Below are positions 2,828-62,100 of a DNA stretch of 64,000 bases, piece after piece (the first letter of the stretch is position 1; every line of letters begins with the position of its first letter). The translations under genes and the position numbers were made by a program. The stretch is taken from the NCBI GenBank assembly GCA_964485575.1, contig CAZAJO010000004.1, forward strand, positions 25,307 to 89,306, given 5' to 3'. The notes below the pieces were generated by a model, which saw nothing but the letters and a program-made list of their open reading frames with translations, was not told where the DNA came from and ran no database searches. Source of the DNA: an uncultured Gammaproteobacteria bacterium. GTDB lineage: Bacteria; Patescibacteriota; Microgenomatia; Levybacterales; GWA1-39-11.

Positions 2828-4041
2828 TTTTTTACAGTTTTCCTTTCTTTTAGTCTAATAACTACTACTAAAAGTATCAAATAGTACCCAAAAATGCATG
2901 CAATTGGTACTGTATCTATACTTATCTGTAAGTTTATTTTGGAGAATAACACTACTATAGTCGTAAAATAAGACAGAAATGGATAGCAAAGAAGTATCAA
3001 AGGTTTGGCTATAATTGGTAAAAACAAGGAAATCAAACCCGCTAGCCCTCCAAAAATCATTATGATGGGAATAGTCCAAAGAACTAATATATTTACTGGA
3101 AATGAGAGTAACGAGTAAGTTCCAAAGACTGTTATTATGAGTGGAAAGGTTGCGATTTGAGCTGAAAGGGTCGTAGTAATGTCATCTTTTATAAAACTCA
3201 GAAACTTAAAACGTAACATGGAATCAAGAATTGGTTTAACCGTCAATATTCCAAATGTCGATAAAAAAGACAATTGAAATGAAACGTCTATGATCTCCTC
3301 CGGCTGTACAAATAGCATCGCCCACCCAGTCAGAAAAAGTACATAAATGCTACCTATTTGTCTACCGCTAAATAGTGCAGTGTATGCCAAAATTGCCATA
3401 ATACTTGCCCTAACAATTGGTGGGTCAAATCCTGTCAGAACTGCGTAGACCAGCACACCAAGTGCCGTGAAAAGTAATGCAAGTCTTCTTTTCACGAAGG
3501 TGCTAAATATTACCAAAAGAAGCATTGCAGCTATGCTGACGTTCTGTCCTGAGGCTGCTATGACATGCAGAACTCCTGCATTTTTCAACTGTTGGTAATA
3601 CTCACTATCTATCTTGTCTCTGACTCCTAAAATTATGCCAAGCAGTAGCCCTCCTTCTCTAGATGGCAAAGTTGTCATGACAGCTTTCTCCACTTTTAGT
3701 CTTACTGATTTCGAAAAAGCCAACAGAAAGTTGTGACTTTTTATCTTTGTGATCTTTGGATTTTCGACAACCAACAATTGCCCTTTTTTAGAATCTTTCT
3801 TTATGATCTTTCCTTCGATCATTACATTGTCTCCATAATGGTAAGACGGATATAACGGTACAGTTATGAGAATCCCATCGGTAAAGAAGTATTGAGAAAG
3901 AGAATTTTTCTTTGGCTCATGAATAAAGCTATAGGATTTTTTGTATGTTTCGTTTTCTTGATAGATATGACGCTCTTCTATCCAAAAAAACTCTCGTGTT
4001 AGTAGCGCTAAAAGTAGTATGCCGATAAATAAGTGCTTCAT
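2824..4041 (-). CDS. comEC: ComEC/Rec2 membrane (competence channel) domain, N-terminal part
   Basis: Polytopic membrane protein with the competence-domain motif GVLHVIAASGQNVSIAA. Sits immediately upstream of the MBL-domain ORF. Confidence 0.7.
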   Translation of the reverse strand: MKHLFIGILLLALLTREFFWIEERHIYQENETYKKSYSFIHEPKKNSLSQYFFTDGILITVPLYPSYHYGDNVMIEGKIIKKDSKKGQLLVVENPKITKIKSHNFLLAFSKSVRLKVEKAVMTTLPSREGGLLLGIILGVRDKIDSEYYQQLKNAGVLHVIAASGQNVSIAAMLLLVIFSTFVKRRLALLFTALGVLVYAVLTGFDPPIVRASIMAILAYTALFSGRQIGSIYVLFLTGWAMLFVQPEEIIDVSFQLSFLSTFGILTVKPILDSMLRFKFLSFIKDDITTTLSAQIATFPLIITVFGTYSLLSFPVNILVLWTIPIIMIFGGLAGLISLFLPIIAKPLILLCYPFLSYFTTIVVLFSKINLQISIDTVPIACIFGYYLILLVVVIRLKERKTVKK

Positions 4042-4766: not shown

Positions 4767-7760
4767 TTAAACAACGAAATTCACGATCTTACCTGATACA
4801 TAAATGACTTTCTTAATATCTTGACCCTCTAATTGTTTCAAAACCGCAACTTTAGCTTTATTTTCAATCAGATTTCTATCTTCAAGATCTTGGCTACTAA
4901 TTTCTATTTCTCCCCTTCTTTTTCCGTTGATTTGCACAGGAATTACTGTTGATGATGAAATAAGATGCTTTTGGTCAAATTCAGGCCAATTACTCAAATG
5001 TATTGATCCCTCCCCAATTCCACTCCAAATCTCCTCTGTCATATGGGGAGCAAAAGGAGCAAGAAGCCTGAGATAAACCCTAACTTCTTCCTTGCTTAAT
5101 TCTTGATTGTTAACTCTTACCTCCTGGTTGAGGTAGTTGTACCACTCCATGAGCTTTGCGATTGCAGTGTTGTAGCCAAATTCGGATATATCTTTAGTGA
5201 CCCCCTGGATGGTTTTATGCATCATCATCGTCCTTTCATTACTCAGTTGTACTTCATCCTTTGATGATTGGGAAAGAAGTTTCCAGACTTTTCGTAAAAA
5301 TCTGTTCATACCCTCTATCCCACTATCCCTAAAGTCTCCACCGTCAGAGTATGGGCCTATGAACATGAGGTAAGTACGAAGAGTATCAGCCCCATATTTA
5401 CCGATGTACTCGTCAGGTACAACGACATTTCCTTTGCTTTTACTCATCTTTGCTCCATCCTTTATGATGAGACCATGAGCAAAGAAAGTAGAAAATGGTT
5501 CCTCGAAGTTCAAATACCCCAAATCGGACAGCACCATCGTGACAAAACGTGAATATAAAAGGTGTAGCACACTATGTTCTGCTCCGCCAATGTACATGTT
5601 TACTGGTAGCCATTTTCTAGTTGTTTCTATATCAAAAGGTGCTGTAGATACATCAGTTGAGGGGTATCTGAGGAAATACCAGCTACTATCAAGGAAAGTA
5701 TCTGACACATCGGTCTCTCGAGTTGCATCTCCCCCGCAAGATGGACAGGTAGTCTTGTAAAATTCAGGATGATTGGCAAGTGGAGCTTTTCCTGTTCCCA
5801 TTGGTTTCCAATCGGAAACTGATGGTAAAAGTACAGGAAGTTCAGCTTCAGAAACCGTAAACCATCCTTCCATGCCTGTTACCTCAGCTTTACCATTTTT
5901 TTGACAAGTTGAACAGAAGATCATAGGTATTGGCGGCCCCCAATACCTTTGTCGGGAAATGAGCCAATCCCTGAGGTGGAAATTGGATTTTCTAACCCCA
6001 ATTTCTCTTTTTTCAAGGTTTGAAAGAACTTGATCCATTTGCTCTGGCATTACAAGATCATTCCAGGTATCAGAATTTGTTAAGATCCCTTTTCCCGTAT
6101 AAGGCTCAACTTTGAACTCATCAGAACTATTTGTTGTATCAAACCCAAGCTCAATTGCCCGAGCTACTCCATGCTTTAAAAATCTTTCCCAATGTCTTAT
6201 ACCCTCAAGATCCGGATACGACAGCCAATTTTCAAGAATCTCTTTTGGCGTTCTCCAAACAAGCTCAAAATTCTCGTGCTCTTCATGTTTTGTAGGTAAT
6301 AAATCGTTGTCTTCTAGAATTACAAGATATCCTGAAGCTTTCGCAACCCTATATGACTTTCGCCCTCCACTGAAGAAATGAGGGTAGGCATCTCCAATCT
6401 TTTCAACGTGTTTGAAATTATGAAGCCCACTTTCTTCTGTCACTTCCCGCATTACGCCTTTTTCCTCATCTTCTCCTTCTTCTGTTCCTCCGGCAAATAA
6501 TCCTAGGAAGTTATCCCGCTCCGGCCAGAGCGCGACTGCATATTTTTGAGTCCTTGGATCAAATATCACACCTGCTCCTCCATCGCGTCTTTCTTCACCA
6601 TCATGAGGATTTCCATTTTCAGGCATGATAACCTGTTTTACAGCTAGGTTATATTTCTTGGCAAATTCAAAATCACGGCTGTCATGAGCAGGAACTGCCA
6701 TGATTGCCCCAGTTCCATAGCCTGAAAGTACATAGTCAGCGATCCAAACAGGAATCTCCTCATTATTTACAGGATTTATCGCTGTAAGGCCTGAATCAAC
6801 TCCAGTTTTTTCTTTCCCCTCCCCAGTTCTCTCAATATCAGTCTTATCCTTAACTTTTTCTATGTATTGCCTTACCTCTTTACTATCTAAAGTTGAAACA
6901 AGGCTGTGTTCGGGCGCAATAACCATGAATGTTGCACCATACAACGTATCTGGCCGTGTTGTAAAAACCTTCAAACTTTCCTCTCGATCTTTGATTTTGA
7001 ATTCAACCTCCGCTCCTTCACTTTTACCTATCCAATTTGTTTGGGCAATTTTGACCTTGTTCGACCAATCAAGACCTTCAATATTTTTAAGTAGTCTGTC
7101 TGCATATTTAGTAATCCTAAAGAACCACTGTTCAAGATTTTTCTTCTCCACTTTTGTGCCGCAACGCTCACACGACCCATCTATAACTTGCTCATCAGAC
7201 AAAACCGTTAAGTCTTTTGGACACCAATTAACAAGAGCGGTATCACGATATGCAAGGCCAGCTTTAAAAAGTGTTACAAATAGCCACTGGGTCCATTTAT
7301 AGTAATTTGGATTATATGTTTCGACCGTACGTTGCCAATCAAACGAGTTTCCAATACTTCTCATTTGCCTATAAAAGTTCTTCTCAGCAATCTCTGCCTG
7401 TTCTTTAGGGTGTCTTCCTACTTTTAAGGCATAGTTTTCACTATGAATACCAAATCCGTCTAACCCGATAGGCTCAAGAACATCCTTCCCTTGCATGCGT
7501 TGAAATTTTGCGTATACATCGGCACCAGTAAATGCGTACATATTGCCTACATGAAGCCCCTCTGCTGAAGGGTATGGGAACATCATGAGGTTAAAATATG
7601 GGTTCTTTGCTGCTTTTATATCAGGGCTAAAAGTCCTGTCACTCTCCCATTTCTCTTGCCATTTAGCCTCAATATCTGCTGGTATATATTTATTTTCTGC
7701 TGACTTTTGCTGCTTCATATAGACATCCTCTATTCTATCAAATCCAAGTACAAACTTCAC
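4767..7760 (-). CDS. leuS: Leucyl-tRNA synthetase carrying an internal NUDIX-hydrolase-like insertion; the true start is more likely the Met at 7718
   Basis: Class I HVGN (HIGH) and KMSKS motifs, and the CP1 editing motifs TTRPDT and AVPAHDSRD. A perfect Nudix box GGTEEGEDEEKGVMREVTEESGL lies between the editing region and the RDW/RYWG segment. Confidence 0.93.
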   Translation of the reverse strand: MKFVLGFDRIEDVYMKQQKSAENKYIPADIEAKWQEKWESDRTFSPDIKAAKNPYFNLMMFPYPSAEGLHVGNMYAFTGADVYAKFQRMQGKDVLEPIGLDGFGIHSENYALKVGRHPKEQAEIAEKNFYRQMRSIGNSFDWQRTVETYNPNYYKWTQWLFVTLFKAGLAYRDTALVNWCPKDLTVLSDEQVIDGSCERCGTKVEKKNLEQWFFRITKYADRLLKNIEGLDWSNKVKIAQTNWIGKSEGAEVEFKIKDREESLKVFTTRPDTLYGATFMVIAPEHSLVSTLDSKEVRQYIEKVKDKTDIERTGEGKEKTGVDSGLTAINPVNNEEIPVWIADYVLSGYGTGAIMAVPAHDSRDFEFAKKYNLAVKQVIMPENGNPHDGEERRDGGAGVIFDPRTQKYAVALWPERDNFLGLFAGGTEEGEDEEKGVMREVTEESGLHNFKHVEKIGDAYPHFFSGGRKSYRVAKASGYLVILEDNDLLPTKHEEHENFELVWRTPKEILENWLSYPDLEGIRHWERFLKHGVARAIELGFDTTNSSDEFKVEPYTGKGILTNSDTWNDLVMPEQMDQVLSNLEKREIGVRKSNFHLRDWLISRQRYWGPPIPMIFCSTCQKNGKAEVTGMEGWFTVSEAELPVLLPSVSDWKPMGTGKAPLANHPEFYKTTCPSCGGDATRETDVSDTFLDSSWYFLRYPSTDVSTAPFDIETTRKWLPVNMYIGGAEHSVLHLLYSRFVTMVLSDLGYLNFEEPFSTFFAHGLIIKDGAKMSKSKGNVVVPDEYIGKYGADTLRTYLMFIGPYSDGGDFRDSGIEGMNRFLRKVWKLLSQSSKDEVQLSNERTMMMHKTIQGVTKDISEFGYNTAIAKLMEWYNYLNQEVRVNNQELSKEEVRVYLRLLAPFAPHMTEEIWSGIGEGSIHLSNWPEFDQKHLISSSTVIPVQINGKRRGEIEISSQDLEDRNLIENKAKVAVLKQLEGQDIKKVIYVSGKIVNFVV

Positions 7761-7784
7761 TACAACGAAGTAAGTGGATTAATC

Positions 7785-7878
7785 GCGGGTGGCTAGCGGG
7801 GGGAGACCCTCACTGAGCATCCGCAGTGAAGCAACGCGAAACGAGGATTGTCGAGTGAGGAGCGACGACAGAACCCGC
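7785..7878. ncRNA. GC-rich structured RNA-like repeat, family 1 copy A (orientation undetermined)
   Basis: About 95 nt, near-identical to 9623..9718. Closing stem GCGGGU/ACCCGC and internal stem CCUCACU/AGUGAGG. Both stems show compensatory substitutions in copy B. Confidence 0.4.
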
Positions 7879-7889
7879 ACTTCTTGGCA

Positions 7890-7920
7890 GGAACCCAAAA
7901 ATTCTGATTTGTGCTACAAT
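7890..7920 (+). promoter_or_regulatory. Putative extended -10 promoter (TGcTACAAT) ahead of the Clp_N gene
   Basis: tttgtgctacaat at 7908..7920; the -35 is weak. The Clp_N ATG at 8043 is preceded by an aggag RBS. Confidence 0.3.
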
Positions 7921-8042
7921 CCCCCTATCGCTTTGCGGTTAAATAACGCTCGGCCTTTTGGCCTTAGCTTGCGTTGTGTTGGCCGTGAGGCTCGCACATT
8001 AAAAACGCAGGAATTATTCGTAACTACAGCAGGAGTACGTCA

Positions 8043-8498
8043 ATGAATCTGGAAGAACTCTATTTATCCGACCCTCTCCGAAGGACACTCATCCTTGCAG
8101 GTGACGAGGCCAAACGCCTCCGTCGTAAGGAAGTGTCCACCCTAGACATTGTCGCAGGGATGCTCCTTGAAGGAGAAGGAACTGCGGCAGTAGCCCTAGC
8201 ACGATTCGATGTGGACATCCATGCATATCGCCGTGCAGTCGGCAGAATTTTTGGAGAAGGGAAATCACCTCCAAATCCACAGATTGTCTTTACGCACAAG
8301 GCAGAAAAAGCGCTGATCGCCGGACGGGAAGTTGCTGACTGCCTCAACCACGTGACCACCGGAACCGGTCATGTCTTAATCGCTGTCACACGCGACGTGA
8401 GATCTGATGCCGCCGGAGTTCTGCAATCACTCAGGGTGAACCTTGATAATCTGAGGGCAATAGTCCTCACGATCATCTACGATTACCCTGGTCGGTGA
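8043..8498 (+). CDS. Clp N-terminal domain (double Clp_N repeat) protein, GC-rich
   Basis: STLDIVAGMLLEGEGTAAVALARFDVD and a second repeat match the ClpA/ClpC N-domain pattern. Codon third positions are strongly G/C, unlike the flanking genes. Confidence 0.7.
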   Translation: MNLEELYLSDPLRRTLILAGDEAKRLRRKEVSTLDIVAGMLLEGEGTAAVALARFDVDIHAYRRAVGRIFGEGKSPPNPQIVFTHKAEKALIAGREVADCLNHVTTGTGHVLIAVTRDVRSDAAGVLQSLRVNLDNLRAIVLTIIYDYPGR

Positions 8499-8564
8499 TG
8501 GTGCAACACATCCTACGGTGAGCTACTCGCTCACCCCGAACCCCTAGTTTTTGGAGGTGCCCAC

Positions 8565-8897
8565 GTGGGCGAGCAACTATCGGAATCCAGCCAAGATCAA
8601 GAGGCTGGCGAAAAGCCAAGGGCAGGCAGGGCGTCAGACCCTAAGCCCAAGCACCCAGGCACAGTCCTTGAGCGGCTTACGGCCATCCTCGTCGAACAAC
8701 TCGGCGTTGAAGAGGAGGACGTTACCCTAAGTGCCAACTTCGTTGACGACCTCAACGCGGACTCCCTCGACCTCGTCGAGCTCATCATGTCCCTGGAGGA
8801 GGAGTTCGACTCCGAAATCCCTGACGAGGACGCGAAAGCCATCACGGACGTCCAGGCGGCACTGGACTACCTCCGCGACCACGGCGTCGTCGACTAA
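8565..8897 (+). CDS. acpP: Acyl carrier protein (AcpP-like) with about 30-aa N-terminal extension; GTG start with GGAGG RBS
   Basis: [58 protein letters not shown] is near-canonical AcpP, including the DSL phosphopantetheine attachment site. GC-rich codons. Confidence 0.75.
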
Positions 8898-8922
8898 CGC
8901 CCTACCTGCGTTTTCAACCAAG

Positions 8923-8955
8923 AGGCGCCCTTCGGGGCGCCTTACCTTTCTTTGA
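8923..8955 (+). terminator. Intrinsic terminator after acpP-like gene
   Basis: aggcgccc-ttcg-gggcgcct hairpin with UUCG tetraloop, followed by tacctttctttg. Confidence 0.6.
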
Positions 8956-8989
8956 CTCTTTTTCAAATTTGAGATACCATTAACCTTAT

Positions 8990-40088: not shown

Positions 40089-40787
40089 ATGAATTTTAAA
40101 AGATTTGTCGCAACATTTTTTGCTACAGCAGCTTTTCTTGCAACCGCAGGAAGCGCTATAGCTTCTGGTACCGGATATGGTACAAGTAACTGCCAAGTAA
40201 TCTACGGCGGAGGACAAGTTTGTCCAACAACCCTACAATTCTCTATAGATAAGAAAGTTCTTGCACCTACTAAAGGTGGGTCATTTGTTGATAATCTTGG
40301 ATTTAATGATGCAAAATTCCAACCAGGAGATCAGGTTTCATTTAAAATAACTCTAAAAAATACCGGAGACAAGACAATTGACCAAATAACTGTTGTTGAT
40401 ACTCTTCCAGCTTATCTTACATTTACATCTGGACCTGGAACTTATGATGCAACTTCAAGAACCGTTACCTATATCATAAAGAATATTGCTGCTAACCAAT
40501 CAAATGATCAGACAATAGTTGCTACTATCGCAAATGTTGATGCACTTCCAAAAGATCAAGGAGTTATGTGTCTTACAAACAATGTAAAAGGTAATGACAA
40601 TCAAAGTGACGTAGCAAACGATAGCTCTTCTTTTTGTATCCAAAAAGAAGCTATGACTCCAAAAGTATTCACAACAGTTCCACCTAAATCTATCCCAAAT
40701 ACCGGACCTGAAATGCTTCCTTTGCTTGGGCTTATCCCAGCTGGAATCGCAGGATTTACACTTCGAAGAAAATCAAAACTCGGATAA
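40089..40787 (+). CDS. Secreted surface protein with C-terminal sortase-type sorting signal (IPNTG + hydrophobic segment + basic tail)
   Basis: Signal peptide. C-terminus IPNTGPEMLPLLGLIPAGIAGFTLRRKSKLG. Confidence 0.6.
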   Translation: MNFKRFVATFFATAAFLATAGSAIASGTGYGTSNCQVIYGGGQVCPTTLQFSIDKKVLAPTKGGSFVDNLGFNDAKFQPGDQVSFKITLKNTGDKTIDQITVVDTLPAYLTFTSGPGTYDATSRTVTYIIKNIAANQSNDQTIVATIANVDALPKDQGVMCLTNNVKGNDNQSDVANDSSSFCIQKEAMTPKVFTTVPPKSIPNTGPEMLPLLGLIPAGIAGFTLRRKSKLG

Positions 40788-41244
40788 CGCCCGAGTCTAC
40801 GAGGGCGCAAGCTTTGCTTACGCCCACTCGTTAGGCTTGAGGTTAGAGAAGGCAGCTTTCACCAAATCACCCCAACAAATTCCCAAAAAGCTTTCTTCCC
40901 TGACTTTTAAGTTAGGAAAGTAGTATGCAGCAGACTATCCATTAGCTGGATAACTTTGCACCATATACCACTTTGTTCTTTGAAAATTGGTATACAGAAA
41001 TTATTTTTGGAAGACACTTCGGTGTCGGATTGAGCGTTCCGTTGGCATGAAAGCTGCACAATGGGCCGCTCAACCCGGCACTGTAAGTTACAACCGGGAA
41101 ACTTCACTTACAAGGAGAACATATTGGAGGCTCGATCTCCGCCCACCATTCCCCAACCGCAAGGTTAGGATCAAAGAATGTGAGCGGTATCGTCCGCCTA
41201 CATTCTTCCTTTAAGTCAGAGTTCAGTTCCGGAGGAACAACACC

Positions 41245-42177
41245 TTGTCTAGGTCATCCCAAGTTTGGGTCGTGTTCAGTATCATCGTCACCGCTATCGC
41301 GGTTGGCTGGGGTATGCACACGCTCGACAACACGGATTCTGCCATCGCGGACGAACCGTCCACGACGGCAACCGCCACAGTGGCGGCCACCCAGACGCCC
41401 AACCCGGGCGACAAGAAGGACCAGCCGCCGGCGCCTAGCGCCGTCTGCCGTCTTTCGGTCATCGGGCCTTGGTCCGAGATCAATGGCACCGCCCCCTACC
41501 GCATCGAAGTCGGTGGAGGCGATGTTCAGCACATGGACTTCTACCCCACGATTGGGGTCCAGTCCATCAGCTACATCGTCGACTCCCTTCCACGCGGCGG
41601 CGTCGCCGCCAAGTGGTACGGGTACGGCCAGATGTGGCAGGGCAACAAGCACGAGTGCGCTAACTTCGACTACGTCAAGGACGCCGTCGAGTACGCGAAG
41701 GGTAACGCCAGCGGCCAGCCCGGCCGCCTCCAGCAGGGCCACAGCGGGATCGTCATTGATCTCCGCGGTGGCAACTTCAAGATCATCGAGAAGCCGAAAG
41801 GCTGGACCGAAGATCAGATCGATGCCCTCATCGCCCTCCACAAGGCGGCGATGAACCCTGCCAATCCGCCTACTGCTGGTGCTGTTCAGGCTCCCAGCGG
41901 CAAGTGCGAAGCCGTCCGCGTTATGCAAGACGAAACCAAGCGCCCCAACGGCGCCAACAGTATCGTTAAGCTTGGCGGCGACGGCCACGCCTACGTCTTC
42001 GAACTCTGGAATCCAGAAGTTCAGGGCGGCAAGGAGATGAAGGTCCTGATTCCTGCAGGCGAAAGCCGTACGTTCACTGGTTTTGGTGGCGCCGCATGGC
42101 AATACCCAACCACGTGCACGGCTCAGCAGATCAAGGACGACTTCAACAACAACCCGAAGCCTGCCTATACCGGTTAA
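41245..42177 (+). CDS. GC-rich, N-terminally membrane-anchored hypothetical protein (310 aa); TTG start with GGAGG RBS
   Basis: ggagg at 41231..41235 and ttg at 41245. TM VWVVFSIIVTAIAVGWG. G/C-dominated third codon positions, unlike the flanks. The antisense ORFs in the track (41254..42102, 41180..41854) are GC-composition artefacts. Confidence 0.6.
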   Translation: MSRSSQVWVVFSIIVTAIAVGWGMHTLDNTDSAIADEPSTTATATVAATQTPNPGDKKDQPPAPSAVCRLSVIGPWSEINGTAPYRIEVGGGDVQHMDFYPTIGVQSISYIVDSLPRGGVAAKWYGYGQMWQGNKHECANFDYVKDAVEYAKGNASGQPGRLQQGHSGIVIDLRGGNFKIIEKPKGWTEDQIDALIALHKAAMNPANPPTAGAVQAPSGKCEAVRVMQDETKRPNGANSIVKLGGDGHAYVFELWNPEVQGGKEMKVLIPAGESRTFTGFGGAAWQYPTTCTAQQIKDDFNNNPKPAYTG

Positions 42178-42208
42178 TCCGGTGGCCGACTTCTCTGTAT
42201 ACCAAGCT

Positions 42209-42239
42209 CGGGATGGTCCCCTTCGGGGGGCCGTCCCGG
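42209..42239 (+). terminator. GC-rich UUCG-tetraloop hairpin immediately after the island-2 gene (terminator-like; weak U tract)
   Basis: cgggatggtcccc-ttcg-gggggccgtcccgg. Confidence 0.4.
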
Positions 42240-42347
42240 CAAGAGAGGGGAGGCGCTAACACCGCTTCCAAAGAACAAACCGGGCATGCCCGGCAGAACG
42301 CTTTGGAGTCGATTGCCTCCCCCCTTTCCCCCTGTACATAAAAACTT

Positions 42348-42578
42348 TTGTGTACAGAGCCGAAAGGTATGAAAATTTTACAAATAATAGTAATGGGAGT
42401 CATAGGAATAGGCCTTATTGGGGTCGTATATTTTCTTGGCATGAAGCATATCCAAAATGAAGCAATAGACAAATGTCTAGCCGTTGGAAAAGCACAATTT
42501 GTGAGAGATGGCCAGACTCTTACTGGTCCTGATGGATATTGGTATCAGTACTGTATGAAAGAAAAAGGGCTCAAATAA
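42348..42578 (+). CDS. Small single-TM protein (hypothetical)
   Basis: ILQIIVMGVIGIGLIGVVYFLG helix; native AT-rich codons. Short ORF, could be spurious. Confidence 0.4.
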   Translation: MCTEPKGMKILQIIVMGVIGIGLIGVVYFLGMKHIQNEAIDKCLAVGKAQFVRDGQTLTGPDGYWYQYCMKEKGLK

Positions 42579-42589
42579 AAAATATTAAT

Positions 42590-43477
42590 ATGAAAAAACC
42601 ATTAGTATCAGTCATCATGCCAGTCTATAATGCAGGAAAATTCCTAAAACCTGCAATCGATAGTATTTTGAATCAATCATTTCAGGATTTTGAACTTATT
42701 ATTATTGATGATGCCTCTTCAGATGGATCACTTGAGACATTGGAACAATACAAAAGACATTATCCTTTTAAGATAAAGGTTATCGAAATGAAGAAGAACC
42801 TCAATTGTGGTGGAGATAGATGTGCGAATGAAGGATTAAAAATTGCAAAGGGAACATATATTGCCAGAATGGATGCTGACGATGTTGCTCATAAGAGTAG
42901 GCTTCAAAAGCAAATAGACTTTCTTGAGTCTAATGAAGATGTATTTCTCGTCGGTTCAAACGCCTATGTGATTGATAAACAGGGAAAAATAATCGGTGAA
43001 AAAAATGAACCATCAACTCATAAAGAGATTTATAATTCCTATTTCTCTTTTCACCCTCTTATCCACCCTACGTGCATGATGAGAAGAACATTCAAAAACA
43101 AAAAGTTTAGCTACAAACTTTCATATAATGCCAATAATGACTATCTTACCTTCTTCACTCTTATTTGTAGTGGAGCAAAATTTGCCAATCTCAACGATAA
43201 ACTTTTGTACTATAGAATTCATGGAAAGAATGATACTTTCGTACATATGAAGCAAAAATTCATAAATACCATGAAGATCAGACTCAAGATGATCTCAAAA
43301 TATGGTTACAGACCAAGCAAACGGGCTGTAATACTTAGCATTATTCAAGCAACTGCATTTTTGATACTTCCCGAAAAGGTACTTTTTAATATGTACCTTA
43401 CGAGCCGCGGCATCATAAAAAGACCTGTATTTAATTTTTCATACAAAAATTTTATATCTGTGAGATTGAGTGCCTAA
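42590..43477 (+). CDS. Family 2 glycosyltransferase (start taken at MKKPLVSV rather than 42539)
   Basis: KPLVSVIMPVYNAGKFLKPAIDSILNQSFQDFELIIIDDASSDGS is the GT2 N-terminal signature including a DxD motif. Confidence 0.75.
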   Translation: MKKPLVSVIMPVYNAGKFLKPAIDSILNQSFQDFELIIIDDASSDGSLETLEQYKRHYPFKIKVIEMKKNLNCGGDRCANEGLKIAKGTYIARMDADDVAHKSRLQKQIDFLESNEDVFLVGSNAYVIDKQGKIIGEKNEPSTHKEIYNSYFSFHPLIHPTCMMRRTFKNKKFSYKLSYNANNDYLTFFTLICSGAKFANLNDKLLYYRIHGKNDTFVHMKQKFINTMKIRLKMISKYGYRPSKRAVILSIIQATAFLILPEKVLFNMYLTSRGIIKRPVFNFSYKNFISVRLSA

Positions 43478-58720: not shown

Positions 58721-59329
58721 ATGAAGATTATTGTTGGACTCGGCAACCCTGGGGATAAATATACAGGTACCCGCCACAATATTGGGTTTGCTACACTTGA
58801 TCATCTCCTAAAAAAATACGAACCAGTCGACCAATCGGTCTGGGAGGACAATAAAAAAACTAAATCTCAGATCAAAAAACTGTCTATTGGGCAATACCAG
58901 GTACTTCTTGCAAAGCCTCAAACTTTTATGAATAACTCTGGCATGGCACTTTCCTTACTCACCCAATACTTCAAGATAAAACCTGAAGAAGTAATTGTTA
59001 TTCATGACGATCTTGATCTTCCTCTCGGAAAAATCCAAATTAGGTTTGGTGGAGGAAGTGCTGGGCACAATGGTATCGAATCAGTGATAGAAGCTTTAAA
59101 AACGGATAAATTTAGCCGAATCCGCATGGGTATTGGACATCCAAGAGGAAGAAACCCGATTGATGAGATTAGAAGCCACGACTCGGTCAGTAATTACGTT
59201 GTTTCACATTTTGTTGAGGGTGAGCATAAAGACGTCAGGAATATGATAAAGCATGTTCAGAAGAACTTAGAGTTACTACTTGAGCATGGAATTGATACCT
59301 TCATGAGCAAATTTAACTCGAAGAGTTAG
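58721..59329 (+). CDS. pth: Peptidyl-tRNA hydrolase
   Basis: IIVGLGNPGDKYTGTRHNIGF and HDDLDLPLGKIQIRFGGGSAGHNG. Confidence 0.85.
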   Translation: MKIIVGLGNPGDKYTGTRHNIGFATLDHLLKKYEPVDQSVWEDNKKTKSQIKKLSIGQYQVLLAKPQTFMNNSGMALSLLTQYFKIKPEEVIVIHDDLDLPLGKIQIRFGGGSAGHNGIESVIEALKTDKFSRIRMGIGHPRGRNPIDEIRSHDSVSNYVVSHFVEGEHKDVRNMIKHVQKNLELLLEHGIDTFMSKFNSKS

Positions 59330-62100
59330 GGACTGACTTCTTGCCACTTCGTGTACGTGGTCTTGTAGAAATCAGTAAGCTGGGTTATAAAATCAGGTCG
59401 TGCACTAATATAGAGTGATGGATACAGTAGGTTATTGAAACAAAGACTTCTTCTATTTTGTAGTGTTCCAGTTCCAGACGTTGAGAAAGGTTTAAGGCTA
59501 TTTGCAACGAGGGCACCACCAACATTAAGCCGTAAATCTGAAGTTACAGTATCAGGACATGAATCACCATCCAATATTATGCTTCCCTGGGCAGTATAAT
59601 ATCCGTCAATATTACTTGTCGTTGAGGAGAGTGTTGCAGTTCCAATTGTTTTTGCTATCGTTATATTTCCTTTTGCAGCAACTATAAATATCCCTTGATT
59701 TTGAGCAATAGAAATAGTACTCGCGTTGATAGTCACGTTTCCATTTACAAGAATAACTACTCTTCTCCCAATAACATGTGTGTAGAGATTTATGGTGAGG
59801 TCCGCGGGGGATTCGTATACACCACTTGCAGTTATCTGTGTCTGATCAAATGTTCCTGCGGAAATAGGAGTAACTGTCACTCCATCTTGCTTTGTCTTTG
59901 ACTTATAGAAGTCGTAGCTCATACCACCATTTCTGTTCTCTGTATCTGCATTGTAAGAATATTCGTTATTGATGACCCAATTTTTAACAGAAGCAGCCCC
60001 AAAACCAAGATTTGCAGTGCTGTCTGAAGAATAAAATATCCCTGGATAATTCGCGTCAGTTGAGGCATAAAGTCCTGCGGGCACTGGATTACTGAGATTT
60101 AAGAATCGCACATCTCCCACGCTGGTCTGAAACCAAGGGTTAAGAGGTGCGATACAAAATGTAGCTACTTGATTATTGCTTCCTGTCGCAAATGATACTC
60201 CATTGCTTCCCAATGGTGACTCGACAGCTGGTGTCACATCTGTACCTATTACGGTGTATCCTGATGGAACCTGAAGACTTAACTGATAATTACCCTGTGG
60301 AAGACATGCAAATGCAGTGTCCCCTGTACCTGAATTGGTAGTCTGGTTAGTATTCACACTTCCACCATTTGTGATATTTAATGTCGCACCTACCCCACCA
60401 CTACTGTATGCAACTCCTGAAGATGAGTTACAAGTGCCAACGGCAGCAACTCTTCGAACATTAGCAGTAACAGTCACCGTTGTTGGTACCGTAATTGAGG
60501 CTGTATAATTTGTTGATCCCCCTGGACCTCCAACTGTCACACGTGGCGTGTAGGTTGTCTGGGATGCTGGACAAGCTGGAGCTGTCCATGTTGTTGTTGA
60601 GCTTGTAGATGTATCTGTCTGTCCACTAACGGTTGGGGGTGGGTTGTTGCCACCAGTATCTGGGTTCCAAGTGAATGGTGGTGGAGGAAGACTATCATCT
60701 GGATTTTCGACATTTGTACATGATGTAACCGATAGTGTGACAGTTCCTCCAGGATTTGCACTTCCACCTGGTGGATTAAGCGTGATTGAACCTGGAGTAC
60801 ACGCAGGTACTGATTGACGAATTCCGAAATTGACCCCTGATGCATCAGGGCCCAAAGAAACAGCCCTTGGATTGGTATTACCACCAGCCGTTCCCATTGA
60901 ATAGCCTGCAGGCAGTGTAAGCGTGATATTATAGCTTCCAGCACTGTTGCTCAAAAAGCTATACGTACCGTTTGCAGCTGTTGTCGTAGATGGATCTGCC
61001 CCTGGTCCTACCCTTTGGACTGATGCGTTTGCCACATTTAACTCATCACCAGCACCATTGTTGCATGCTCCTGAGCAATTCTGAACCCCACTATTATTGG
61101 TGTCAACATAGACCTTCCCAGTCACATCATATGTACAGTCAGCTACACAATTAGCAGCTGTCTCACCGGCATCACAAACTCCATTCCCACAGGTACAATC
61201 AAAATCAGTACTGCAATTTCCGAAAAATCCGCACCCTTGGGGCTGACAAGAATTACCGACGCATGAGCTCACCTCTACTTGTCCAAAACCGCACCCTCCA
61301 CCACCCCCGCTTGGCGGAAGGCAAGTCCCTCCAGCTCCCGGAGCAACGCACGTGTCTCCTGCAGAACAACAAACAGTGCCACACAAAAACCCAGACCCAC
61401 AAGCTCCACCACCTGGAGGTGATGTTGGCGCAGGGGTACCTCCTGTTCCTCCCCCACCACAAGGTGGTGAGGATGAACACCAGGCTCCACAAGAATTACA
61501 GATAGGTTGCGAGTATGTGCTGGATGGAACAGTACAATTACAACTTCCATCGTAAACATAAATTTGAGAAGAACCACAGCTTACACAAAAATCATTACAA
61601 TAAGTACCTGGAGTACAACCTAAAGCTGGGGTTGGCGTTGCTTGGGGAGCTGGACAGCTTGGATCCACTTTTCCTCCCTGTACACATGATCCACCAGAAC
61701 ATACTCCATAACGCTCACAACCTTGTCCATCAAAACTATTAAAACAATTTGAGGGTCCACACGTAGATCCACCTCCCCAGTTACATTCATTAACTATATT
61801 AGCGGAAGCTCCATAACAAGCTTGAGATAAGTAGCATGCAAATTCATCGCTCGCAAAACAACCTCGCCATTCTATATCAGACCCATTAATGACACACGCA
61901 CAATGTCCACCCAGTCCACCACATACCGAACCCTGAGTTGTACAGACACCACTAATCCCATCGTCACAATTACAATCGTAATGGGGCGTCGAACAACTAT
62001 AGCTTCCTGTACAACTCTGGGCAAACGAAGTATTTACAACAAATGAAAAGCAAAAAAGAAGAAATATAACAATAAATACCTTTAGGATTCGAGATTGCAT
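59326..62100 (-). CDS. Secreted 924-aa surface protein with N-terminal Cys/Gly-rich (EGF-like or disulfide-knot-like) region and Thr/Ser-rich beta-rich body
   Basis: Signal peptide MQSRILKVFIVIFLLFCFSFVVNTSFA. More than 60 Cys in the first 330 aa. Overlaps the pth stop by 4 nt. Confidence 0.65.
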   Translation of the reverse strand: MQSRILKVFIVIFLLFCFSFVVNTSFAQSCTGSYSCSTPHYDCNCDDGISGVCTTQGSVCGGLGGHCACVINGSDIEWRGCFASDEFACYLSQACYGASANIVNECNWGGGSTCGPSNCFNSFDGQGCERYGVCSGGSCVQGGKVDPSCPAPQATPTPALGCTPGTYCNDFCVSCGSSQIYVYDGSCNCTVPSSTYSQPICNSCGAWCSSSPPCGGGGTGGTPAPTSPPGGGACGSGFLCGTVCCSAGDTCVAPGAGGTCLPPSGGGGGCGFGQVEVSSCVGNSCQPQGCGFFGNCSTDFDCTCGNGVCDAGETAANCVADCTYDVTGKVYVDTNNSGVQNCSGACNNGAGDELNVANASVQRVGPGADPSTTTAANGTYSFLSNSAGSYNITLTLPAGYSMGTAGGNTNPRAVSLGPDASGVNFGIRQSVPACTPGSITLNPPGGSANPGGTVTLSVTSCTNVENPDDSLPPPPFTWNPDTGGNNPPPTVSGQTDTSTSSTTTWTAPACPASQTTYTPRVTVGGPGGSTNYTASITVPTTVTVTANVRRVAAVGTCNSSSGVAYSSGGVGATLNITNGGSVNTNQTTNSGTGDTAFACLPQGNYQLSLQVPSGYTVIGTDVTPAVESPLGSNGVSFATGSNNQVATFCIAPLNPWFQTSVGDVRFLNLSNPVPAGLYASTDANYPGIFYSSDSTANLGFGAASVKNWVINNEYSYNADTENRNGGMSYDFYKSKTKQDGVTVTPISAGTFDQTQITASGVYESPADLTINLYTHVIGRRVVILVNGNVTINASTISIAQNQGIFIVAAKGNITIAKTIGTATLSSTTSNIDGYYTAQGSIILDGDSCPDTVTSDLRLNVGGALVANSLKPFSTSGTGTLQNRRSLCFNNLLYPSLYISARPDFITQLTDFYKTTYTKWQEVSP

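Follow-up and report, generated by a model that had tools for sequence, protein, structure and literature searches.

In this work we analysed a stretch of 64,000 nucleotides (hereafter the window), which is part of contig 4 of a bacterial genome, and within it a GC-rich patch at 41000-42340 that reaches 57-62% GC in a 39% GC genome and encloses gene X, an open reading frame (ORF) of 310 amino acids (aa). We identified this patch as a vertically inherited, single-copy, old unit of one Microgenomatia family, and not as a recent import. The unit, referred to below as the module, has a fixed frame made up of a left repeat, a conserved hairpin termed P1 at the point where GC rises and a right repeat at or near the point where GC falls, and inside this frame lies a GC-rich gene for a predicted extracytoplasmic protein. 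The module is older than the genera that carry it, and the combination of a co-evolving bracket round a coding gene with a persistent compositional island is unusual.

The GC content, computed in consecutive segments of 500 nt, was 0.57 (41001-41500), 0.62 (41501-42000) and 0.51 (42001-42500), compared with 0.35-0.43 in the surroundings. Gene X (41245..42177, plus strand), which is supported by alignments, an AlphaFold (AF2) model and the ratio of nonsynonymous to synonymous substitution rates (dN/dS), has a GC content of 0.61 and a GC content at third codon positions (GC3) of 0.77, versus GC3 values of 0.19-0.34 in the neighbour genes. A preliminary description of this DNA had reported the TTG-start ORF with its GC-dominated third positions and a GGAGG ribosome-binding site, and both were borne out; the GGAGG is located at 41231-41235, 9 nt before the TTG, and the two motifs were kept in five orthologous leaders. 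That description had also proposed a structured 5' leader and a structured 3' element. In agreement with this, the region 40990-41250 folds at -94.8 kcal/mol (z = -5.7, with 0/200 shuffles as stable) and 42178-42345 folds at -74.8 kcal/mol (z = -3.6), and all the stems that had been named are present in the sequence.

A GC-rich island was found at the same site and in the same orientation in every relative examined, which cover at least six genera; the loci number about 44, of which 20 come from species genomes and 24 from contigs that carry X. Synteny of X together with GC-richness was observed in L002-L006, L055, L056, L067, L069, L072-L084, G034, G036 and G015, and all nine X homologues (9/9) from low-GC genomes with a readable context were located between a gene for a DUF11 protein and a gene for a GT2 glycosyltransferase. 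The GC3 of the homologues reached 0.86. Low-GC orthologues at this locus had been named in the preliminary description as the observation that would count against a foreign unit; orthologues do exist at the same locus, but they are GC-rich (gene GC of 0.50-0.66 versus 0.33-0.45 in their surroundings) and not low-GC. In the genus of the host, the slot after the DUF11 gene held a GC-rich island of 1-2.7 kb in all seven genomes with long enough contigs, and no empty site was found among them. In several sister species the slot ORFs were GC-rich yet unrelated to X.

These observations bear directly on the idea of a recent horizontal acquisition from a high-GC donor, in which X would be a foreign gene that brought its own expression signals, and it is in this sense that the locus had been called a 'foreign-looking unit'. 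Such an origin would account for the composition of X (GC 0.61 versus 0.39 in the genome, GC3 0.77) and for a TTG start, a GGAGG and GC-rich hairpins typical of high-GC bacteria. It would also agree with the presence of about 25 other GC-rich patches in the genome, several with patchily distributed genes, with a relative of X domain 1 in a 68% GC genome, and with the fact that horizontal transfer is common in Patescibacteria (PMC12455944). However, GC-rich orthologues of the module stand at this site in six or more genera, between which the identity of DUF11 proteins is only 40-50%, and the synteny of the nine readable low-GC homologues argues in the same direction. The borders of the island carry inverted repeats, with no integrase or other mobility gene, no tRNA and no direct repeats, and neither tRNA nor tmRNA genes were detected anywhere in the window. 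In a census that took one genome per genus (36,145 genera), the carriers above noise belonged to Microgenomatia only, and no donor lineage was found in this census or in 1.84 billion protein representatives. A recent transfer is thus very improbable, and the 'foreign-looking' label, taken as recent transfer, did not hold. An ancient transfer before the radiation of the family is possible.

An artificial origin of the patch, by contamination or by misjoining of a high-GC fragment into a low-GC contig, has a practically negligible probability. The source is a metagenome-assembled genome (MAG) with an estimated contamination of 2.1%, and the Logan contigs of one DNA run break at 41182/41190, 41663-41673 and 42034-42036, which would be compatible with a chimera. 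Nevertheless, both composition steps, whose verification had been advised in the preliminary description, lie inside single contigs of that same independent DNA run (40600-41182 and 42034-42688), and the same junction sequences recurred in over 20 independent assemblies, which derive from different samples and studies. Collectively, recent transfer and assembly error are effectively excluded.

The host genome comprises 1.20 Mb in 23 contigs, with a completeness of 99% and a GC content of 39.1% (0.391). Scores of its Rho protein reached at least 60% of the best possible value only in c__Microgenomatia (Patescibacteria), and therefore the host is a bacterium of the candidate phyla radiation (CPR). 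The locus was present in sequencing runs of wastewater and activated sludge from more than 10 studies. The contig of a close relative, L057 (CAZEGF010000013.1 = G036 C13), is titled 'uncultured Gammaproteobacteria bacterium', which is probably a mislabel given the Rho placement.

The preliminary description had overlooked the two most important features of the module, namely a covarying leader hairpin and a bracketing inverted repeat. The hairpin, P1 (41020..41083, plus strand), is 64 nt long, stands on the strand of X and ends 162 nt before the TTG. It consists of an outer stem CGGUGUCGG / CCGGCACUG, an internal loop, an inner stem around GCGU...CGC and a variable loop; the stem GAUUGAGCG...CGCUCAACC of the preliminary description turned out to be the inner part of this long hairpin, with comparative support. 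Two covariance models (R1, R2) were used, the first built on window positions 41004-41100, which the model match spans, and the second rebuilt from 25 diverse copies. P1 was found in 22 of 49 family genomes by the first model, in 33 of 48 by the rebuilt one and in 11 of the 12 genomes of the genus, always at one place per genome in the family except as described below for G039, and weak matches were obtained in 4 of 100 sister-family genomes. The first model also matched sister species whose slot ORFs are unrelated to X. In 20/20 species genomes inspected, the DUF11 gene lay 200-450 nt 5' of the module, with P1 downstream of it in the same direction. P1 sits exactly at the GC step, where values rise from 0.35-0.44 upstream to 0.46-0.65 downstream.

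In the alignment of the 25 P1 sequences, 94.4% of the cells were paired and double changes were observed in 12 of the 18 pairs; 0/500 column shuffles reached the observed values, and sliding the partners by 1-3 columns lowered pairing to 30-50%. Several positions are mostly G.U on the plus strand, and therefore the ORF-sense strand is the folding strand. Searches against Rfam 15 gave 0 matches in the window at gathering, none credible at E up to 10 on 40700-42500, and none at E up to 0.01 in 20 other hairpin-bearing loci. Because covariation is strong and Rfam 15 matches none of these copies, P1 is a new, well-supported structured element and a candidate RNA motif with no counterpart in that database. 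P1 was nearly identical among genomes whose flanking genes have synonymous divergence (dS) of 0.3-1.4, and the leader as a whole was far more conserved than neutral sites. In alignments of the intergenic regions, the leader with its high GC content, the codons at the start of the gene and the 3' hairpin are kept, while the gene body diverges. As a separate observation, two P1 copies were detected in G039 (C57:5396-5485 and C47:5166-5252), both of them preceded by a DUF11 gene and followed by GC-rich sequence, and these may reflect two strains binned together or a true duplication.

At 41014-41027, a short segment just upstream of P1 is able to form pairs with the 5' arm of its outer stem, and equivalents were seen in L095, L096, L105, L103 and L052; such pairings (GACAC/GUGUC, GGUAC/GUACC, GGCA/UGCC) occur in about half of the lineages. 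They suggest a possible conformational switch, in which a small hairpin would be mutually exclusive with P1. The GACAC-UUCG-GUGUC hairpin of the preliminary description is of this kind: its sequence is present, but it is at best an alternative conformer that competes with the outer stem of P1, because GUGUCGG pairs with CCGGCAC in the long hairpin.

These features raise the alternative that P1 is a leader that senses a ligand or a protein, either riboswitch-like or as the operator of an RNA-binding protein, and that the repeat is incidental. The strong covariation would suit such a role, as would the invariant nucleotides near the internal loop and the stem bases (CCGG, GCGU, CGC), the single copy on the same strand upstream of the gene in 33/48 family genomes, and the alternative conformer that is possible in about half of the lineages. 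We nonetheless judge this alternative to be quite unlikely. As a simple hairpin, almost completely paired and variable in its loop, P1 leaves little space for a ligand pocket, and no expression platform between P1 and the start codon is conserved across lineages. The alternative hairpin is absent in about half of the sequences, and the complementarity derives in part from the self-complementary GGTACC. Besides, a sensing leader would leave the repeat arms and the GC-richness unexplained.

The second overlooked feature is an inverted repeat that brackets the module. Its left arm, IR-L (TTGGTATACAGA, 40987..40998, plus strand), is the exact 12-nt complement of its right arm, IR-R (TCTGTATACCAA, 42194..42205, plus strand), which is placed 17 nt after the stop codon. 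IR-L stands 17 nt upstream of the P1 model match (41004), with the hairpin itself about 20 nt 3' of it, and only 1 of 500 shuffles matched the length of the pair. Across lineages the arms are 10-16 nt long, sharply bounded and 1.1-3.2 kb apart. Nine different arm sequences were found in at least 14 lineages, including GACAAGGTATACAG (G030, G031, G040), GACAAGGTAACAGGAA (G032), AACAGGTAGTAGAA (G039), AAGGTATACAGG (genus g7), AAAGGTATATAGGGA (g10), AAGGTAACAGG (g6), and AAGGTATGTAGG and AGGCATCATCAA (g9), and each variant has its exact complement at the 3' GC drop. Since both arms change in concert between lineages, an interaction between the two sites is required. The arm data fit RNA pairing and a DNA-level process alike and do not say which of them operates. 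A second inverted repeat (40972-40985 / 42266-42279; 14 nt, 93%), which joins the promoter-like block upstream of IR-L to the 5' arm of the inner stem of the 3' element T2, was not kept in L002 or L055 and was rejected as lineage-specific or due to chance. A 16-mer around IR-L had 70 exact matches in viral contigs, about the chance number by a rough estimate.

The arms could instead be recombinase sites of a DNA-level element, in which P1 and the gene would be inverted as an on/off phase switch or swapped as a cassette. This would explain why unrelated GC-rich genes of different species stand in the same frame, and it is consistent with exact arms of 10-16 nt that change in concert without a G.U intermediate, with a gene content of the frame that differs between sister species, with mosaic X alleles and with a degenerate copy of the right-arm core in hairpin T3 of X-type loci. 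The genome also encodes two tyrosine recombinases and one large serine recombinase. However, the Phage_integrase matches are on C18 and C10 and the Resolvase match is on C3, with none on the module's part of C4, and no recombinase gene was found near the locus in any relative. The opposite orientation was observed in 0 of the about 44 loci, and contigs of the DNA run crossed both arms in forward orientation and unbranched. As regards spare cassettes, X gave a single DNA and protein match in the genome, no slot ORF had a paralogue there, and no relative of X was found in viral contigs. A template repeat, as expected for the target of a diversity-generating retroelement, was not found either: no second copy of any part of 40925-42345 was present in the genome (a reverse transcriptase was not searched for). 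Taking both sides into account, we consider a DNA-level element unlikely, although it is the main rival of the reading that we favour.

The protein encoded by X begins with a hydrophobic helix (aa 3-26 in the AF2 model), followed by an A-x-A motif and by a disordered linker rich in Thr, Pro and Ala (aa 27-66). Domain 1 is an alpha/beta domain (aa 67-207) with conserved C68/C138 and R161 and with the invariant residues E88, H96-x-D98-x-Y100 and H166-S167-G168. Domain 2 is a beta-sandwich (aa 220-302) with conserved C221/C291, W255 and G282. The model had a mean predicted local distance difference test score (pLDDT) of 84.4. The preliminary description had predicted a membrane-anchored, surface-exposed product; its predicted extracytoplasmic nature stands, and X is predicted from its sequence to be an extracytoplasmic protein, either secreted or anchored. 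The 'anchor' itself may instead be a cleaved signal peptide, because the A-x-A motif that follows the hydrophobic helix (SAIA|DE in X, SANA|D in other alleles) is present in all close alleles.

A word search gave 18 clusters of X homologues, and 107 were obtained from the 1.84 billion representatives at E up to 1e-3; these homologues appear to constitute a small, unannotated family of secreted two-domain, Cys-paired proteins. Pfam gave no match at E up to 0.1, and a profile search against PDB returned only a weak match to rotavirus VP8* (E 0.008, aa 229-306). No usable match was obtained with Foldseek against PDB, with Foldseek against BFVD or in the ESM Atlas; the best Z in VIA-align was 5.0, with cupin-like matches on domain 2 and gelsolin-like ones on domain 1. 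No solved or viral structure was a convincing relative of either domain. One distant relative of domain 1, P0074 (38% identity, E 1e-14), is a Pkinase fusion, in which the part homologous to domain 1 makes up the extracellular C-terminal portion of a Ser/Thr protein kinase. The kinase gene stands at 3303-5384 of L068, a Logan contig of 68% GC, and after it come an FHA-ABC transporter, a neighbour with a reverse transcriptase-Cas1 fusion, Cas2 and a WYL protein. In G035, a second slot ORF (L047 4323-5279; 318 aa, GC-rich) has a lipoprotein-like N-terminus and three tandem repeats of about 60-70 aa with the pattern PDTVNG...GYE...Y.QCY.

The dN/dS values of X were 0.28-0.71, compared with 0.02-0.07 for Rho, DUF11 and GT2, and the dS of X was not raised; relative to synonymous change, nonsynonymous change was thus 5-20 times faster in X than in its neighbours. 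Since dN/dS is below 1, X is protein-coding and under constraint. The proposal that X is 'hypervariable between near-identical strains', based on Rho and DUF11 proteins that are 97-100% identical, was discarded, given that the dS of the flanks was 0.1-1.4 and that of X was not elevated. Mosaic alleles were observed: L004 is identical to the protein of the window as far as about aa 216, beyond which its C-terminal domain is of the type found in G034 and L002.

On the 5' side of the module, a block TTCTTTGAAAA (40976..40986, plus strand), -35-like and directly 5' of IR-L, was recognised in the upstream contexts of 20 genomes and in a promoter scan. It reads CTTTGAC / CTTTAAC in other lineages, and the scan reported a TTGAAA-16-TATTTT consensus match at 40980-41007, so that this conserved block is a possible promoter element. 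The rest of the GC-rich leader (41101..41244, plus strand), as seen in alignments and a consensus fold, is kept only among X-bearing close relatives. It contains a hairpin at 41134..41148 (plus strand) from the consensus fold, a second one at 41174..41207 (plus strand), which is the imperfect leader stem noted previously and shows two compensatory pairs in the alignment of five sequences, and the Shine-Dalgarno GGAGG (41231..41235, plus strand), which is overlapped by a small hairpin in the alignment.

On the 3' side, three elements follow IR-R on the plus strand. T1 (42206..42240) is a GC hairpin of 13 bp that has a UUCG loop but lacks a U-tract. It agrees with the UUCG hairpin of the preliminary description and is kept in loci that carry X, its stem showing compensatory changes in L053 and L055. 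The nested stem set previously noted corresponds to T2 (42244..42325), in which the stem GGGGAGGC...GCCUCCCC encloses CUUCCAAAG...CUUUGGAG and CCGGGCAUGCCCGG; a C-rich tract comes next, and in L002 the interior of T2 has been lost. T3 (42332..42358) is a hairpin CUGUACA...UGUACAG just before the ribosome-binding site and ATG (42369) of a small ORF, and its stem resembles the IR-R core, as a degenerate second copy in X-type loci. In species with other cargo genes, GC-rich hairpins stand 5' of the right arm instead.

Contigs from two metatranscriptome studies covered 41091-41870 with 0-3 differences, and 40742-41090, which includes IR-L and P1, was uncovered. One of these contigs begins at 41091, just 3' of P1, and the flanking genes were matched only by diverged pieces from other strains. 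These contigs are a hint of transcription of X.

The GC-richness is an old property of the module, most likely with an ancient origin outside the lineage, because a bacterium of 68% GC carries the relative of domain 1 as a fusion with a Ser/Thr kinase; this P0074 kinase fusion is the sole pointer to a high-GC origin. The module predates genera with DUF11 identities of 40-50% and saturated synonymous sites, and by a rough calculation simple decay should have removed most of the GC signal by now. It may have been retained either by selection on RNA structure or by allele exchange among relatives. When synonymous codons were shuffled, X was found to fold 18% more stably than its shuffles (z = -6.9), with z of -4.2 to -5.2 for X homologues and of -1.9 to -7.7 for other slot ORFs. 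As for exchange, the dS of X between the window and G036 was 0.38, below that of the flanks (0.64 to saturated), and this low value together with the mosaic alleles points, as an idea, to exchange among relatives. Polarised substitutions suffered from a parsimony artefact in both directions, the flanks seeming to gain GC and X to lose it.

Considering all these data, we propose as the most likely mechanism, with roughly even confidence for and against, that the module works as an mRNA unit for a variable surface protein, and that this mRNA is either protected by its structure or processed. It would be transcribed as a discrete, heavily structured mRNA, in which P1 on the 5' side and the GC hairpins T1-T3 on the 3' side would shield the mRNA or flag it to be cut out of a longer transcript, and pairing of the two repeat arms might close the mRNA. 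The genome encodes RNase III, which would be a candidate processing enzyme for an excised message. The output of the surface protein would thereby become independent of the low-GC neighbours, and the fast change and allele shuffling of X could reflect diversifying selection at the surface of an episymbiont, arising from host attachment or from phage pressure.

Several observations weigh against this proposal. The repeat cores are perfectly Watson-Crick in 18 loci without internal G.U, and the positions next to them showed no excess of G.U (27 G.U versus 43 A.C); perfect cores suit a repeat at the DNA level no less than they suit an RNA helix. Five P1-bearing lineages (G035, G008, G015, G009, G041) had no detectable repeat. 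The -35-like block lies directly 5' of IR-L, so that, should it be a true -35 element, the left arm may be untranscribed, which would weaken the RNA model. At the other end, T1 is followed by CAAGAGAGG instead of a U-tract and the terminator scan made no call on the plus strand there, and hence termination at T1 is only putative. The signal from RNA runs consists of contigs only, without strand or end information, and may include DNA. Because no fold or family could be recognised for X, its proposed surface role is based only on features of its sequence and on the genes around it. In the closest pair of alleles, 21 synonymous changes were GC-to-AT versus 1 AT-to-GC, so that no GC-raising force is evident on short time scales; this pattern may be due either to amelioration or to unpurged mutation bias. 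Finally, the excess folding of the ORF is suggestive of selection on mRNA structure but is not specific to X: the same shuffles gave z of -9.7 for PPDK, -5.9 for a fatty-acid desaturase and -4.5 for an ordinary high-GC ABC gene, with native genes at -0.9 to -2.5.

A broader form of the proposal, which we put forward only tentatively, is that the module represents a kind of genetic unit that has not been described before, a fixed, family-wide 'expression slot' for envelope proteins, in which the frame would be under selection and the cargo gene would be free to diverge or to be replaced. The GC content of such a slot might be upheld by a stable, processed RNA closed through 5'-3' pairing, or by repeat-mediated exchange of GC-rich cassettes from a shared pool.

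We also inspected other GC-rich patches of the genome, of which there are about 25, including PPDK, NDK, acyl-carrier-like, Clp_N-like, fatty-acid desaturase and NUDIX genes, among others. Island 1, a patch at 7780-8960 of the window with a GC-rich non-coding stretch upstream, contains a Clp_N-like ORF (8043..8498) and an acyl-carrier-like PP-binding ORF (8565..8897), both GC-rich. It has a 13-nt inverted repeat at 7999-8011 / 8905-8917, with the 3' arm 8 nt after the stop codon, and then a UUCG hairpin. The preliminary description had attributed the same character to island 1 and the module, and they do share a style; the gene of island 1, however, is near-unique and the module is family-wide. 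The Clp_N-like gene was detected, weakly, in only 1 other of 48 family genomes, and because it is nearly unique to the host genome island 1 looks like a sporadic acquisition. PPDK (L014 1386-4049; G000 C7:41385-44045; GC 0.59) was present in 7 of 49 family genomes, being GC-rich in G000, G034 and G018, about 0.47-0.55 in G005 and native, about 0.40, in G015. These patches (PPDK, island 1) fit ordinary horizontal acquisition.

GC-rich patches with an inverted repeat of 10-11 nt and one arm 1-12 nt after the stop codon were island 1, the desaturase, a 385-aa protein and NDK, and inverted repeats of such length were absent at four native control genes. The repeats at these four patches were each marginally significant (p about 0.02-0.06), and they hint at a principle that might extend over the whole genome. 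Immediately before the window begins, G000 C4:1-24000 (L007-L010) holds dense GC-rich patches, none of them rRNA by Rfam; L007 carries an NDK gene at 1568-2074 on the minus strand, with many short GC-rich ORFs without Pfam matches nearby. At 60500-61500 of the window, GC values of 0.49-0.52 were found inside a minus-strand ORF (59326-62100, 924 aa), which on first look is not the same kind of island.

The order of genes at the locus is Rho (minus strand), the DUF11 sortase substrate, the GC-rich module, a small membrane ORF, GT2 and a 1142-aa membrane protein, and the flanks are as stated in the preliminary description. The DUF11/CLIPPER-domain surface protein (40089..40787, plus strand; Pfam PF01345, E 2e-14; GC3 0.19) ends in a C-terminal PNTG sortase-type signal. 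The small ORF (42369..42578, plus strand, ATG at 42369) is native and low-GC, encodes 69 aa with a transmembrane helix and a Cys-containing tail, and is kept in close relatives. GT2 (42590..43477, plus strand) is followed by the 1142-aa membrane protein. The module is therefore placed among cell-envelope genes, with the sortase-anchored DUF11 protein on one side and the cluster of GT2 and the large membrane protein on the other. In the close relative L002, two 98-aa GIY-YIG ORFs (3181-3477 and 4940-5236) bracket a LysM/Peptidase_M23 gene a few kb upstream of Rho.

Some surface-protein genes, such as the S-layer gene slpA of Lactobacillus, have long structured 5' leaders. The module resembles them as an envelope gene in a cell-wall neighbourhood with a long leader, a stable 5' hairpin, strain variation, allele replacement and a hint of high transcript representation. 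It differs from them in that X is small (310 aa) and lacks an S-layer or cell-wall-binding domain, in that its hairpin is shared by several genera although the gene that follows is replaceable, and in being compositionally distinct and bracketed by a co-evolving inverted repeat. In the processing stalks of rRNA precursors, the 5' and 3' flanks pair and are cut by RNase III. Like these stalks and other GC-rich RNA genes in AT-rich genomes, the module is a GC-rich folded unit with co-varying flanking complements in a genome that encodes RNase III; unlike them, it encloses a protein-coding gene (dN/dS below 1, confident fold), its arms are only 10-16 nt long without G.U pairs, and its cleavage is putative. 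The hok mRNA is locked by pairing of its 5' and 3' ends, and the module has likewise a 5' leader segment complementary to a segment just after the stop codon; in contrast to hok, no toxin or antisense RNA is present, the arms are 1.2-3.2 kb apart and the pairing is putative.

Loci of antigenic variation such as vlsE of Borrelia and pilE of Neisseria share with the module a surface role, a composition that departs from an AT-rich genome and mosaic alleles, but the module has no silent cassettes or paralogues, and its variation is seen between strains and species. Invertible switches (fim, hin/gin, Bacteroides invertons, shufflons) similarly have exact short repeats round a variable surface gene, with arms that evolve together. 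Unlike in those systems, no inverted state was seen in about 44 loci and no invertase is adjacent, and the promoter-like block lies outside the segment with the conserved hairpin inside. The genomic islands of Patescibacteria (PMC12455944) are also compositionally deviant patches in a streamlined CPR genome; the module differs from them in being family-wide, syntenic and devoid of mobility genes, and in having its own conserved non-coding frame.

For the detection of islands, the module is a caution, being a sharp GC island that resembles a textbook recent transfer yet is older than its carrier genera. It also raises the question of what holds a gene at a GC3 of 0.6-0.8 where other genes sit at 0.2-0.3. 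P1 is an RNA (or single-strand DNA) motif outside Rfam, supported by covariation and diagnostic for one Microgenomatia family, and a co-evolving complementary pair that spans a long range round a protein-coding gene is rare in bacteria. CPR bacteria are uncultured episymbionts, and how they make and vary their cell surface is largely unknown. In this context, the X family represents a new, fast-evolving group of proteins that are predicted to be secreted, and a candidate factor for the interaction of these bacteria with their hosts or with phages.

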